Notes: a model not told the origin generated them from the sequence alone. Positions 10,459 to 14,389 are shown, counted from the stretch's first letter. The stretch is DNA of 64,000 nucleotides from Escherichia coli (GCF_044647545.1 NZ_CP172818.1), one strand, 5' to 3'. Program-made: numbers and translations.

Positions 10459-10498
10459 GTCCTCTTAGTTAAATGGATATAACGAGCCCCTCCTAAGG
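10459..10498 (+). pseudogene. argW: 5' fragment (nt 1-40) of tRNA-Arg(CCU) gene argW; 3' half absent
   Basis: GTCCTCTTAGTTAAATGGATATAACGAGCCCCTCCTAAGG folds as acceptor 5' strand, D-arm, anticodon stem 5' strand and CCT anticodon loop, then stops; no T-arm or acceptor 3' strand follows. Confidence 0.75.
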
Positions 10499-10508
10499 CT
10501 ATTGTCGA

Positions 10509-10784
10509 TTAAGGAGGGTATGGGGGATTACCAAAGGCAGCCCCTTTAAGCTCCGCAAGACGTTCTGACCAGTCATGCGCCAGCGCGTTGTCTTCCGCCG
10601 TGTAATACGCAGCACATTTGGCGTTATCACCGTCAGTGAACAGATCCAGAACAAACGGGCCAAACAGGGTGTTAATTCCCCAGAAAATGTTGTCCGGCGT
10701 GCGCCACTGATCACCCACTTCCTTCAGTTCATGGGCTGGTTTGTTCCGCAGTTCCACCAACTCCTGGCAATATTTATTACTCAT
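10509..10784 (-). pseudogene. yfdM: Truncated phage-type DNA N6-adenine methyltransferase (yfdM-like); ends 2 aa after the NPPY catalytic motif
   Basis: 91 aa from MSNKY..; WRTP...NAKC...NPPY motifs typical of phage Dam-like MTases; stop directly abuts the argW fragment junction; start overlaps yfdN stop (TAATG). Confidence 0.65.
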
Positions 10785-11278
10785 TAAGCCCCCACGTAAT
10801 TCCCTGACAGATACCACTCATCACCCGATACAGCGCGCTTGCTGCTTTTCCGTAAACACTGCTCACGACGCGCCAGAAAATTGTTTCGTTCTGGCTGGGA
10901 GTGGCTTTCACGGAATGCCGCCATCCACACCGTTGCAGCACGACGGTATAAGCCCCTGGACTCCAGTTCTTCCGCCTGGCGGGTCAGGCACAAAATCACC
11001 CGGGGATCGTTAGTGCCGACATAGAAATTGCGCACAGGTCTGGTTTCACGAACTGGTTGTGGTTCCGGCTCCTGCGCTCTCTCAGTCAGGCGTGGGAAAT
11101 GTCTGCGTGTATCTCCTTCACAACGGTGAGCCACACGCCCACTCTGACGTAACTTGCTTGCTGACTGCAGAACGCGCTGCCGTGAGTAACCTGCAAAAGC
11201 ATCCGCAATGTCTCCGGAAGTACACCCCGGATGGGCTTCAATGAATTTCTGAACGTCATTTAACAGACTCATGATCAC
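10784..11278 (-). CDS. yfdN: Prophage PerC-family protein (putative transcriptional activator homolog)
   Basis: 164 aa ORF; C-terminal AEELESRGLYRRAATVW matches the PerC/Pch signature; ATGA overlap with upstream yfdO. Confidence 0.7.
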   Translation of the reverse strand: MIMSLLNDVQKFIEAHPGCTSGDIADAFAGYSRQRVLQSASKLRQSGRVAHRCEGDTRRHFPRLTERAQEPEPQPVRETRPVRNFYVGTNDPRVILCLTRQAEELESRGLYRRAATVWMAAFRESHSQPERNNFLARREQCLRKSSKRAVSGDEWYLSGNYVGA

Positions 11279-11643
11279 CCCCTGAATCCTGCCGGGATCT
11301 GGCTGTAGTCCACGTTGTCGTAACTGGATTTGAAGTACGGGTCTTCGCGTTTTTCGGTGTACGTGCTTACGGACGGCGATAAGCGCAGGGAAAGCTCATC
11401 CCATTTTTCCCGCAGCTTCGACGGGCTGAGCACGTTACGGCACCAGAACGGATCGCGGCTGACGCGGCTGTACATCTCGCAGATTTGTTTGTGAGTACGA
11501 CCATCCTGCACACACATCAGGCGAATTTCGTTTGCCCAGGCTGTCCAGTTCGGTTCTTTGGGACGAACCACCTCGCCGTCACATTCGGCGGCTTGCTCGT
11601 ACAGGGCGATGATTTTTTTCCAGAGCCACTGTGCGCAGGTCAA
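11275..11643 (-). CDS. yfdO: Defective phage replication protein O-like fragment (C-terminal domain only)
   Basis: Conserved-looking C-terminal ~145 aa of the 292 aa ORF; no ATG before it, putative TTG start gives about 122 aa; the N-terminal part of the long ORF is antisense to yfdP and looks non-coding. Confidence 0.5.
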   Translation of the reverse strand: MTCAQWLWKKIIALYEQAAECDGEVVRPKEPNWTAWANEIRLMCVQDGRTHKQICEMYSRVSRDPFWCRNVLSPSKLREKWDELSLRLSPSVSTYTEKREDPYFKSSYDNVDYSQIPAGFRG

Positions 11644-11964
11644 ATCATCCTGCGTTCCCCACTGGCGCTTTTTAGGGCTGAATACAACCGCATCAGGATG
11701 GCGAGTTAAAAACTCCTGTTCAGCCGTTTGCGTGTCCGGTTGCGAAGCGTCCGGACGAGAAGAGGTTTTATTCTCTGCGCTTTTGATTTTACGACGTCCG
11801 GACTTCACGGTAAACCCGTTGTTTCCCCCACAATGACCTGACGGGCAGATTTGATGCGCAGATTTTGACGGGTCTGAGTGTGACGGTTGAGAAAAGGAGG
11901 CTGCCGGGAGCTTCCAACGTTTTGCGGAGAAACATCGGCCTGCAATATGATGAGGAGCAGCAAA

Positions 11965-12327
11965 ATGGCTAGCGAACGCAGTACTGATGTGCAGGCATTT
12001 ATTGGGGAGCTGGACGGCGGCGTATTTGAAACCAAAATCGGCGCAGTTCTCAGTGAAGTCGCTTCCGGTGTGATGAACACGAAAACCAAAGGTAAGGTCT
12101 CGCTCAACCTGGAAATCGAACCATTTGATGAGAACCGTGTGAAAATCAAACACAAACTCTCATATGTTCGCCCGACTAACCGCGGGAAAATTTCCGAAGA
12201 AGACACCACCGAAACGCCGATGTATGTCAATCGCGGTGGTCGCCTGACTATTCTGCAGGAAGACCAGGGACAATTACTGACTCTTGCCGGTGAACCTGAC
12301 GGAAAACTCCGCGCAGCAGGTCGTTAA
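11965..12327 (+). CDS. yfdP: Prophage protein YfdP (unknown function)
   Basis: ORF 11887-12327; start chosen at ATG 11965 preceded by GAGGAG, giving the 120 aa form. Confidence 0.65.
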   Translation: MASERSTDVQAFIGELDGGVFETKIGAVLSEVASGVMNTKTKGKVSLNLEIEPFDENRVKIKHKLSYVRPTNRGKISEEDTTETPMYVNRGGRLTILQEDQGQLLTLAGEPDGKLRAAGR

Positions 12328-12392
12328 TATCGCTTTTAATAAACTGATTATTTATCTCATCACTGAATATCTTTATATAGTGAGGACTTATT

Positions 12393-13217
12393 ATGTCTCA
12401 GAACTTAGACGCAACCGCAATTAATCAAATCCATGCCCTTATTTCTGCTCAGGGTGTTAATGAAATTATCAATAATATTGGTGCCGATGCTGTGGCATTG
12501 CCTGAGAATTTCCGCATTCATGATCTGGAAAAATTTAATTTAAATCGCTTCCGTTTCCGTGGTGCACTTTCCACTGCCAGCATCGATGACTTTACCCGTT
12601 ATTCTAAAGATCTTGCAGATGAAGGCACCCGCTGCTTTATCGATGCCGATAATATGCGAGCAGTCAGTGTGCTTAACCTGGGTACTATTGATGAACCAGG
12701 TCACGCAGATAACACCGCCACTCTCAAACTGAAAAAGACAGCACCGTTCTCTGCTCTGTTGTCTGTTAATGGCGAGCGTAACTCCCAGAAGTCACTGGCA
12801 GAATGGATTGAAGACTGGGCCGACTACCTTGTGGGCTTTGATGCTAATGGTGACGCCATTCAGGCAACCAAAGCGGCTGCGGCGATCCGTAAAATCACAA
12901 TTGAAGCGAACCAGACCGCTGATTTTGAAGACAATGACTTCAGCGGCAAACGCTCCCTGATGGAGTCTGTCGAAGCGAAGACCAAAGACATTATGCCAGT
13001 GGCATTTGAATTTAAATGCGTTCCGTTTGAAGGTCTGAAAGAACGTCCGTTTAAATTACGCCTCAGCATTATCACTGGCGATCGTCCTGTACTGGTTCTG
13101 CGCATTATTCAGCTGGAGGCGGTGCAGGAAGAAATGGCTAACGAATTTCGTGATCTGCTTGTTGAGAAATTCAAGGACAGCAAAGTAGAAACCTTTATTG
13201 GTACTTTCACCGCCTGA
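12393..13217 (+). CDS. yfdQ: Prophage protein YfdQ (DUF2303 family, unknown function)
   Basis: 274 aa ORF with good RBS context; same strand as yfdP/yfdR. Confidence 0.7.
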
Positions 13218-13344
13218 TTTCATTACTGCAAATGCCCCTGCGGGGGCATTTATGGAAACGTAATTTACTCAATAATCGCCGGATGGTGAGGGATTCTTTT
13301 TACCAGAATTCAGCGCGGTGCAGCGCATATACGTGGAGAACAAA

Positions 13345-13881
13345 ATGTCATTTATCAAAACTTTTTCTGGGAAGCATTTTTATTATGACAGGATAAATAA
13401 AGACGACATCGATATTAACGATATCGCGGTTTCCCTTTCAAATATCTGTCGCTTTGCCGGTCATCTTTCGCACTTCTACAGCGTCGCCCAACATGCGGTT
13501 CTTTGCAGCCAGTTGGTGCCGCAGGAATTTGCTTTTGAAGCGTTAATGCATGATGCAACAGAAGCGTATTGCCAGGACATTCCCGCACCACTGAAACGCC
13601 TTCTTCCTGACTATAAACAAATGGAAGAAAAAATAGACGCCGTAATCCGTGAGAAATACGGGTTACCCCCAGTTATGAGTACGCCCGTGAAATATGCCGA
13701 TCTCATCATGCTGGCAACCGAACGCCGCGATCTCGGGCTTGATGATGGCTCTTTCTGGCCTGTACTGGAAGGTATCCCGGCAACAGAGATGTTCAACGTG
13801 ATTCCACTGGCTCCAGGCCATGCCTACGGGATGTTTATGGAACGCTTTAACGAATTATCGGAGTTACGAAAATGCGCATGA
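13345..13881 (+). CDS. yfdR: HD-domain phosphohydrolase (5'-deoxynucleotidase-like) YfdR
   Basis: ORF 13318-13881; HD motif region (H..HD...E) around SVAQHAVL / LMHDATEAY; start chosen at MSFIKTF (178 aa). Confidence 0.75.
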   Translation: MSFIKTFSGKHFYYDRINKDDIDINDIAVSLSNICRFAGHLSHFYSVAQHAVLCSQLVPQEFAFEALMHDATEAYCQDIPAPLKRLLPDYKQMEEKIDAVIREKYGLPPVMSTPVKYADLIMLATERRDLGLDDGSFWPVLEGIPATEMFNVIPLAPGHAYGMFMERFNELSELRKCA

Positions 13882-14234
13882 ATGTTTTCGAAATGGAAGG
13901 ATTTCTTCGCGGGAAATGTGTACCGCGAGATCTGAAAGTGAATGAAACGGATGCTGAATACCTGGTGCGTAAATTTGATGCGCTTGAAGCTAAATGTGCA
14001 GCACTGGAAAACAAAGTAATACCAGTGTCAGCTGAACTGCCGCCAGCGAATGAAAGTGTTCTGTTATTTGATGCTAATGGAGAAGGCTGGCTGATTGGCT
14101 GGCGTTCTCTCTGGTATACATGGGGGCAAAAAGAAACCGGAGAATGGCAGTGGACATTTCAGGTCGGGGACCTTGAAAACGTCAACATCACTCACTGGGC
14201 AGTAATGCCAAAAGCACCGGAGGCTGGAGCATAA
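13872..14234 (+). CDS. yfdS: Prophage protein YfdS (unknown function)
   Basis: 120 aa ORF overlapping the yfdR stop (translational coupling). Confidence 0.7.
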   Translation: MRMNVFEMEGFLRGKCVPRDLKVNETDAEYLVRKFDALEAKCAALENKVIPVSAELPPANESVLLFDANGEGWLIGWRSLWYTWGQKETGEWQWTFQVGDLENVNITHWAVMPKAPEAGA

Positions 14235-14389
14235 TGACCACTTTACCGATAAAGAACTGATTAAAGAAATCAAAGAGCGAATCAGCAGCATGGACGTGCG
14301 AGACAATGTTGAGCGCCGTGCTTATGAAATTGCTCGCACCGCTGCAGGGGACACCATCCTTGTGTTTATCCCTAAAACCACATAAAAAC
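14234..14389 (+). pseudogene. yfdT-like small phage ORF with lost start (1-nt frame change after the ATG); spans the attR core
   Basis: ATG at 14234 overlaps yfdS stop (TAATG) but reads only MTTLPIKN*; the adjacent frame encodes a start-less 48-codon ORF (HFTDKELIKEIKERISS...IPKTT*). Confidence 0.4.
14342..14356 (+). repeat. 15-nt copy of the argW 3' end (CTGCAGGGGACACCA): prophage attR core
   Basis: Exact match to the last 15 nt of tRNA-Arg(CCU), including CCA, about 3.9 kb from the truncated argW. Confidence 0.6.

Follow-up and report, generated by a model that had tools for sequence, protein, structure and literature searches.

Escherichia coli K-12 carries, between the transfer RNA (tRNA) gene argW and dsdC, the cryptic prophage CPS-53, also termed KplE1, and the family to which it belongs is already known together with its site, attachment core and genes (PMC2951348; PMC3509656; PMC4776307; PMC3105296). 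The K-12 element is still able to excise, and its 16-nucleotide (nt) core has been published as CTGCAGGGGACACCAT (PMC2951348). The phages HK620 and Kapi1 integrate at argW as well (PMC3509656; bioRxiv 10.1101/2021.04.09.439263). The locus described here occupies positions 10459–14357 of a 64,000-nt stretch of E. coli DNA (GCF_044647545.1, NZ_CP172818.1), and this whole stretch is referred to below as the window. The window element shares with CPS-53 the argW–dsdC site, the 16-nt core of the right attachment site (attR), and the order and orientation of yfdM'-yfdN-yfdO' (minus strand) and yfdP-yfdQ-yfdR-yfdS-yfdT (plus strand), and the immunity region is likewise missing between yfdO' and yfdP. 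At the level of sequence description, it is securely assigned as a CPS-53-type relic that lacks the integrase (int) and excisionase (xis) genes and lies between an interrupted argW and a genuine attR core.

In a single alignment, window positions 10516–14330 are collinear with positions 8001–11852 of the K-12 reference segment (L001, strain MG1655), at a DNA identity of 94.9% overall and about 82% in the middle region. The truncated methyltransferase gene yfdM' is broken at the same nucleotide in the window and in K-12, GG/GTA(C/T)GGGGGATTACC (the slash marks the break), and intact phage copies read ...GGCT/GTA... straight through this point in 72 of the 72 cases examined. These uninterrupted copies rule out a natural mosaic boundary at the break. 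A pseudo-attachment site for the K-12 integrase IntS was also rejected, the break site not being among the core matches with up to 4 edits in either prophage.

The sequence filling this K-12-like layout is that of another prophage. Blocks 10518–11777 and 11946–14241 are 100% identical to an intact prophage inserted at dusA in the ST648 strain WP4-S18-ESBL-09, and the differences from it cluster within about 30–100 nt of the ends of the second block, at 11919–11945 and 14242–14339, while 11778–11918 has no counterpart there. A 100% copy of the first block is found in five of 5,426 complete E. coli genomes, at least four of which are ST648-type with flanks identical to those of the window; "ST648-type" is used here as a label for the set of genomes that match the flanks, which includes a strain named ST648, and is not an assignment by sequence typing. 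The dusA prophage, whose tail module is of the myovirus type and whose early region resembles that of SfII and SfIV, is carried by NZ_AP022098.1 (4671301–4708859; L130) and four other complete genomes, a subset of the ST648-type strains.

Because the layout and the yfdM breakpoint follow K-12 while the blocks correspond exactly to the dusA prophage, a K-12-type scaffold is proposed. On this reading the element is the dead relic of a KplE1/CPS-53-type lambdoid prophage in the argW–dsdC attachment site, and its homologous parts would have been overwritten from the dusA prophage of the same ST648 clone, either by ectopic gene conversion in the cell or by the computational equivalent of this process during read-based correction. 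Joints without a template would have been left degraded, and two more deletions would follow, one taking the int side and the 3' part of argW, the other the xis side. This composite history, in which both ends are lost during or after the overwriting and the two overwriting routes are indistinguishable here, is given about an even chance of being correct.

Read from the left, the element consists of argW (nt 1–40), a 19-nt filler, yfdM', yfdN, yfdO' with degenerate iterons, yfdP, yfdQ, yfdR, yfdS, yfdT' and the 16-nt attR core. The segment between the argW fragment and the attR core comprises 3,843 nt. The individual features, with their open reading frames (ORFs), are:

10459..10498, plus strand: argW 5' fragment, nt 1–40 (acceptor, D arm and anticodon stem-loop with the CCU anticodon), equal to nt 1–40 of the K-12 and ST648 argW.
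10499..10517, no strand: filler CTATTGTCGATTAAGGAGG, 19 nt, at the left joint; its best approximate matches are no better than those of shuffled versions.
10509..10784, minus strand: yfdM', which retains the 5' 41% of a Dam-type (N6-adenine) phage methyltransferase gene and closes with NPPYPP and a stop (PADLOC MTase_II positions 1–89 of 217; TIGR01712; phrog_111).
10784..11278, minus strand: yfdN, intact, PerC-family transcriptional activator (phrog_1324; 96% amino acid identity to K-12 YfdN over 164 amino acids).
11275..11777, minus strand: yfdO', C-terminal half of a lambda-O-like replication initiator (phrog_391 positions 149–298 of 298).
11778..11945, no strand: degenerate middle joint, in which remains of the O-gene iteron array (11778 to about 11918) merge into yfdP upstream sequence (by sequence comparison).
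11965..12327, plus strand: yfdP (phrog_204; 98% amino acid identity to K-12 YfdP).
12393..13217, plus strand: yfdQ (DUF2303; phrog_210; 99% amino acid identity to K-12 YfdQ).
13345..13881, plus strand: yfdR, HD-domain 5'-deoxynucleotidase (phrog_318; 98% amino acid identity to K-12 YfdR).
13872..14234, plus strand: yfdS (phrog_583; 98% amino acid identity to K-12 YfdS).
14234..14341, plus strand: yfdT', frameshifted and cut after about 105 nt (tblastn match to amino acids 4–34 only).
14342..14357, plus strand: attR core, 16 nt, the argW 3' end plus T, forming the phage/host boundary (alignment to K-12 attR; published core).

An initial annotation made from the sequence alone had proposed a broken argW on the left and a 15-nt match to its 3' end on the right, and both assignments are confirmed. 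The window departs from argW at nt 41, which destroys the tRNA-Arg(CCU) gene: ARAGORN predicts six tRNAs in the window with no tRNA-Arg among them, an Rfam search of 10300–14600 returns no tRNA even at E≤1, and instead of the complete cloverleaf expected of a functional tRNA-Arg(CCU) only nt 1–40 are retained. The gene is accordingly predicted to be inactive. At the other end, the 15-mer CTGCAGGGGACACCA, identical to the argW 3' end, occurs once in the window, at 14342–14356, where about 1e-4 copies would be expected by chance per 64 kilobases (kb) on both strands (our own arithmetic). Together with the next T it yields the published core CTGCAGGGGACACCAT, aligned at the position of the K-12 attR core, and the dsdC-side flank runs on directly from it. 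The corresponding copy in the left attachment site (attL) is absent because argW is cut at nt 40.

For the filler that joins the argW fragment to yfdM', approximate matching against K-12 CPS-53, the dusA prophage, SfIV and the ST648 flanks gave nothing better than shuffled sequences. Its origin as a fold-back or templated copy was rejected, as no source rises above chance and the apparent pairing of the filler with the anticodon arm into a hairpin lacks significance (z = -0.25). A decayed 3' part of argW was judged not compelling either, since three gaps are needed to align CTA-TTG and TCGATT.

The gene content listed in the initial annotation (Dam fragment, PerC gene, O fragment and yfdP-Q-R-S-T') is borne out by profile and protein searches, and a scan of the ORFs against PHROGs finds seven gene remnants only. 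Homology of yfdM' to intact phage genes begins at 10518, and the C-terminal half retained in yfdO' differs from O of Shigella phage SfIV by one residue over about 160 amino acids. Many complete lambdoid prophages encode a YfdQ protein identical to that of the window, and K-12 YfdR is reported to bind DnaA (PMC4776307). In yfdT', a 1-nt deletion at 14242, after codon 3, shifts the frame and leads to a stop after 8 codons; the natural alleles read ATGACCACATTTACC and ...GCTCTGGCATCGCTGGA, the window ATGACCAC-TTTACC and ...GCTC--GCACCGCTG/CAGGGG.

The annotation had further stated that int, xis and an intact attL are missing, and searches of the window for integrases and excisionases indeed came back empty. 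Used as tblastn queries across the 64 kb, K-12 IntS, YfdG/H/I, YfdK and TorI gave nothing significant: IntS has no match in the window at E≤1, and TorI gives only a 16-residue match elsewhere in the window (E = 0.086). No match to the PrtN-type protein of the intact relative L003 was found in the window, and integrase families matched none of the eight ORFs scanned against PHROGs. The comparison with K-12 given in the annotation (intS, yfdGHI, tfaS, yfdK/L, ypdJ and torI absent) is correct by alignment and tblastn, and the deletion endpoints can be set against MG1655: the absent K-12 segments are 2239–8000 of the reference segment (argW 3' part, intS, yfdGHI, tfaS, yfdK and yfdL) and 11853–12465 (yfdT 3' part, ypdJ region and torI).

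The order in intact relatives and in SfIV is Dam - PerC - O - cII - cro - cI - ... - yfdP-Q-R-S-T - excisionase. As these relatives (SfIV, L002–L004 and L130) carry cI/cro/cII between O and yfdP, and an excisionase after yfdT, they show what the relic has lost; the SfIV integrase lies outside the stretch fetched, and in L130 the integrase is located at the opposite prophage end, adjoining dusA. Thus cI, cro, cII and the N-terminal part of O are lost at the middle joint. Measured against L003, SfIV and L130, the immunity region (repressor/cro), complete O/P-type replication genes, lysis genes and morphogenesis genes are all missing. To judge from this content, the element should be unable to excise, as it has no int, no xis and no attL, and equally unable to replicate or to form particles. 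The statement that the island is locked in place thus holds for its content, and immobility itself is a likely consequence of that content. No sigma-70-like promoter is predicted on the plus strand upstream of yfdP, and both gene blocks appear to lack the early promoters that drive the intact relatives; with these lost, any expression would have to be read-through.

Two side observations can be added. At 13209–13388 a weak Rfam match to the sRNA STnc100 covers the yfdQ-yfdR intergenic hairpin; with 20 bits it stays below the gathering score of 47 (E = 0.29) and is probably due to chance; as this was the only such match, a hidden non-coding RNA was rejected. On the host side (14456–18400), dsdC and dsdX are intact full-length ORFs, and the dsdC-dsdX-dsdA stretch is identical to that of strain FDAARGOS_497, whose annotation gives all three genes as complete, so that the D-serine utilization locus is undisturbed.

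The middle joint is strongly degraded. Compared with the K-12 and SfIV O genes it shows about 76–82% identity and frame-breaking deletions of 1–11 nt, and over 84 nt of the iteron region the window is 80–84% identical to the natural allele. This allele is highly conserved, with a median identity of 100% to SfIV across 120 IMG/VR contigs and 98.9% in the cryptic copy of K-12. Around the joint the sequence appears to be a base-by-base mixture of K-12-type and dusA-prophage sequence; no megablast match to it was found in the 5,426 complete E. coli genomes, and two 26-mers taken from it are absent from IMG/VR. K-12 yfdO' matches SfIV O as far as GCGGTTA, where it switches to TGATGAGG from the region upstream of yfdP, and the O'/yfdP joint of the window seems to lie about 30 nt to the left of this point, near to the K-12 joint and probably not identical with it. 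Overall, the sequence is pristine where an ST648 template exists (100%) and degraded where there is none (80–88%, with deletions). The O-like initiator genes of K-12 (yfdO, L001 9260–9440) and SfIV (L006 6080–6260) both contain an array of repeats of about 15 nt of the type AGATTTTGACGGGTC, which presumably represent origin iterons, and this array is scrambled in the window at 11778–11900.

The surrounding chromosome is that of the ST648-type genomes. A group of E. coli genomes that includes MS6198, IMT16316, ECONIH1 and FDAARGOS_497 is 100% identical to window positions 14400–34400 and also matches the left flank. Against FDAARGOS_497, the right flank (14342–64000, 49.6 kb) shows no substitutions and a single 11-nt deletion, and the left flank shows one substitution (at 8636, where the window agrees with other ST648 genomes) and two local lesions. 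In the ST648-type genomes argW is intact and sits directly between yfdC and dsdC, without any insert.

Besides the substitution at 8636, only four places set the window apart from the ST648 clone, and all of these are rearrangements or dominated by insertions and deletions (indels). Lesion (a), at 293–421, comprises two G-to-A changes and about 14 small indels, in which the 11 nt lost are balanced by 11 nt gained; it distinguishes the window from all ST648-type genomes and lies in an AT-rich intergenic region upstream of yfc-type fimbrial genes, 60–190 nt from a boundary of K-12 homology, in sequence otherwise identical to the ST648-type. No megablast match to this allele was found in the 5,426 genomes with the low-complexity filter on, and an invertible switch was rejected because the reverse-complement alignment scores far worse. 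Lesion (b) affects a yfdF-like gene (7164–8223), where one tandem repeat unit is lost (net 187 nt) at a joint near 7515–7542, as in K-12 yfdF, while ST648 single-nucleotide polymorphisms are kept and an extra AAAAAAA is present, so that the 415-amino acid gene of ST648 strains is frameshifted into ORFs of 124 and 235 amino acids. Lesion (c) is the argW remnant itself. Lesion (d), the 11-nt deletion at 52010/52011 (TAAAAAAGCCG), deprives the nupC-pdeA terminator hairpin of its left arm; it is the sole difference from FDAARGOS_497 in 49.6 kb, is located at the site of an IS186-family insertion sequence (IS) in K-12 MG1655, and coincides at its right end with the end of the K-12 IS. A direct comparison of ST648 with K-12 reveals five large structural breakpoints in the region, four of which have the four lesions at or next to them, while the fifth, after lysV, is clean. 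This pattern means either that natural hot spots have mutated again or that K-12-like structure leaked into the window during sequence reconstruction. Sequencing error across the whole window is ruled out, since outside the four lesions about 60 kb of flank contain no indels and at most one substitution relative to the ST648 genomes, and K-12 as a simple mapping backbone is ruled out by ST648-only sequence at 1–481 and by the clean site after lysV.

Several findings weigh against the overwritten K-12-type scaffold proposed above. In about 60 closely related complete genomes argW is empty and intact, and some 60 kb of flank differ by no more than one substitution; an old relic inherited vertically is therefore not compatible with such near-identical relatives. 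Homologous recombination with a K-12-like donor is considered implausible as a source, since the crossovers would have to fall no more than 45 nt to the left and 53 nt to the right of the element. The middle joint is far more degraded than that of K-12 (80–84% as opposed to 98.9% identity to the natural allele), and since the flanks lack substitutions, neutral decay cannot have produced this degradation. In addition, the new left deletion endpoint coincides, without explanation, with the old yfdL/yfdM scar of K-12; neither junction is found in the 5,426 complete E. coli genomes, the GTDB species representatives or the JGI metagenomes; and an exact look-up of the three sequence-specific proteins (four candidate translations) found none on record. 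The slow decay in place implied by the initial annotation is contradicted by the empty argW and identical flanks of the ST648-type relatives and by clusters of deletions at the joints that are incompatible with a neutral origin. Neither of the two origins it had offered, a further-reduced K-12 element or an independently decayed one, fits as stated, as identity to K-12 is too low and the blocks are those of the dusA prophage, yet the K-12 yfdM breakpoint is shared. An argW-integrating lambdoid phage with a dusA-prophage-like early region, unrelated to CPS-53, which recently lysogenized the strain and then underwent three separate deletions, would account for the empty site in close relatives and for blocks that match exactly a phage present in the clone; at the right deletion, yfdT and the core meet in a 3-nt CTG microhomology, and a middle joint displaced by about 30 nt from that of K-12 would also be in line with such an origin. 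It is nevertheless quite improbable, because it requires a nucleotide-exact chance match to the K-12 yfdM breakpoint, where 72 natural copies show no boundary, and would place both ends of the immunity deletion within about 35 nt of those in K-12, while the 18–20% divergence and frame-breaking deletions of the conserved iteron region are left unexplained and direct descent of the middle region from the dusA prophage is excluded by the different O N-terminal and iteron type of the latter. The five intact ORFs, widely conserved in phages, could also be taken to suggest a functional mobile or defensive island, such as a satellite, an element resembling a phage-inducible chromosomal island (PICI), or an anti-phage system. 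This is very hard to credit: the element contains no integrase, primase/replicase, packaging or regulatory module, PADLOC matches the truncated methyltransferase alone (MTase models), with no partner restriction or effector gene and no complete defence system, and the same genes are ordinary constituents of lambdoid early regions.

Two further readings have to be weighed. A serious rival to the overwritten scaffold, though one judged less likely than not, is that the insert or at least its joints are unfaithful, the product of a chimeric ST648 reconstruction by reference-assisted assembly, gap filling, polishing, a mixed sample or other editing, in which K-12-like structure was threaded into ST648 sequence and reads from the dusA prophage "corrected" the homologous blocks. 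All four differences from FDAARGOS_497 are located at or near a structural breakpoint between K-12 and ST648, and they include the single-repeat structure of K-12 at the yfdF-like gene, the K-12 yfdM breakpoint and the K-12 IS end at 52010/52011. The middle joint resembles a lossy K-12/SfIV copy that grades into dusA-prophage sequence, identity is complete where an ST648 template is available and 80–88%, with deletions, elsewhere, and neither the sequence-specific proteins nor the junctions turned up in the collections searched. Conversely, no single technical scenario reproduced every detail: ST648-specific sequence is present at 1–481, where K-12 is not homologous, the fifth breakpoint after lysV is clean, the internal break in argW and the 19-nt filler are not predicted by any modelled pipeline, and the other approximately 60 kb are free of homopolymer or other errors. 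Furthermore, mutations naturally concentrate at attachment sites, IS186 targets and tandem repeats, and the co-location of the lesions with K-12 differences could thus be biological. The second reading, in which the element is real and recent, appears unlikely; here a defective K-12-type CPS-53 would have entered the ST648 chromosome, its blocks would have been rewritten by ectopic gene conversion from the co-resident dusA prophage with five ORFs kept intact, the joints without a template would have degraded, and int, xis and half of argW would have been deleted.

The biological weight of the locus is small, as degraded prophages at tRNA sites are common and the family is well described in K-12. 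If confirmed, the locus would show that a clinical clone has lost its only tRNA-Arg(CCU) gene, and the block-wise identity of the relic with a co-resident prophage would be evidence for gene conversion between prophages. Without argW, AGG codons would be read by the argU tRNA. Were the gene conversion reading true, the element would illustrate clearly how a resident phage can "refresh" a cryptic relic in nature, in a clinical lineage that manages without tRNA-Arg(CCU). Should the sequence fail to be confirmed, the finding would be an artefact. The practical value of the locus lies in a warning: the remnant and three other spots carry indel-type lesions that track structural differences from K-12, and annotation or evolutionary inference from this assembly should await read-level confirmation.

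Among known systems, Sf6, another argW-integrating phage, HK620 and Kapi1 are complete inducible phages with int and xis, unlike the window element, and the likeness to it is one of attachment site. The dusA prophage (for example, NZ_AP022098.1, approximately 4.671–4.709 megabases) has the same early-gene order and is related to the Shigella phages SfII and SfIV; its roughly 37 kb make up a complete prophage, which has an integrase of its own at dusA, a full Dam gene, cI/cro/cII and the genes for lysis, head and tail, whereas the window holds two pieces only, at another site. Its full O gene also differs from the middle piece of the window in N-terminal and iteron type. Compared with CPS-53/KplE1, the window element is without intS, yfdGHI, tfaS, yfdK, yfdL, the ypdJ region, torI, attL and the 3' part of argW, and thus, unlike the excisable K-12 element, lacks all of the parts needed for excision. 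The junctions of the window are found in none of the 370 K-12-like copies of the element in complete genomes (0/370). The element is thus at most a new, further-reduced member of the CPS-53-type family.

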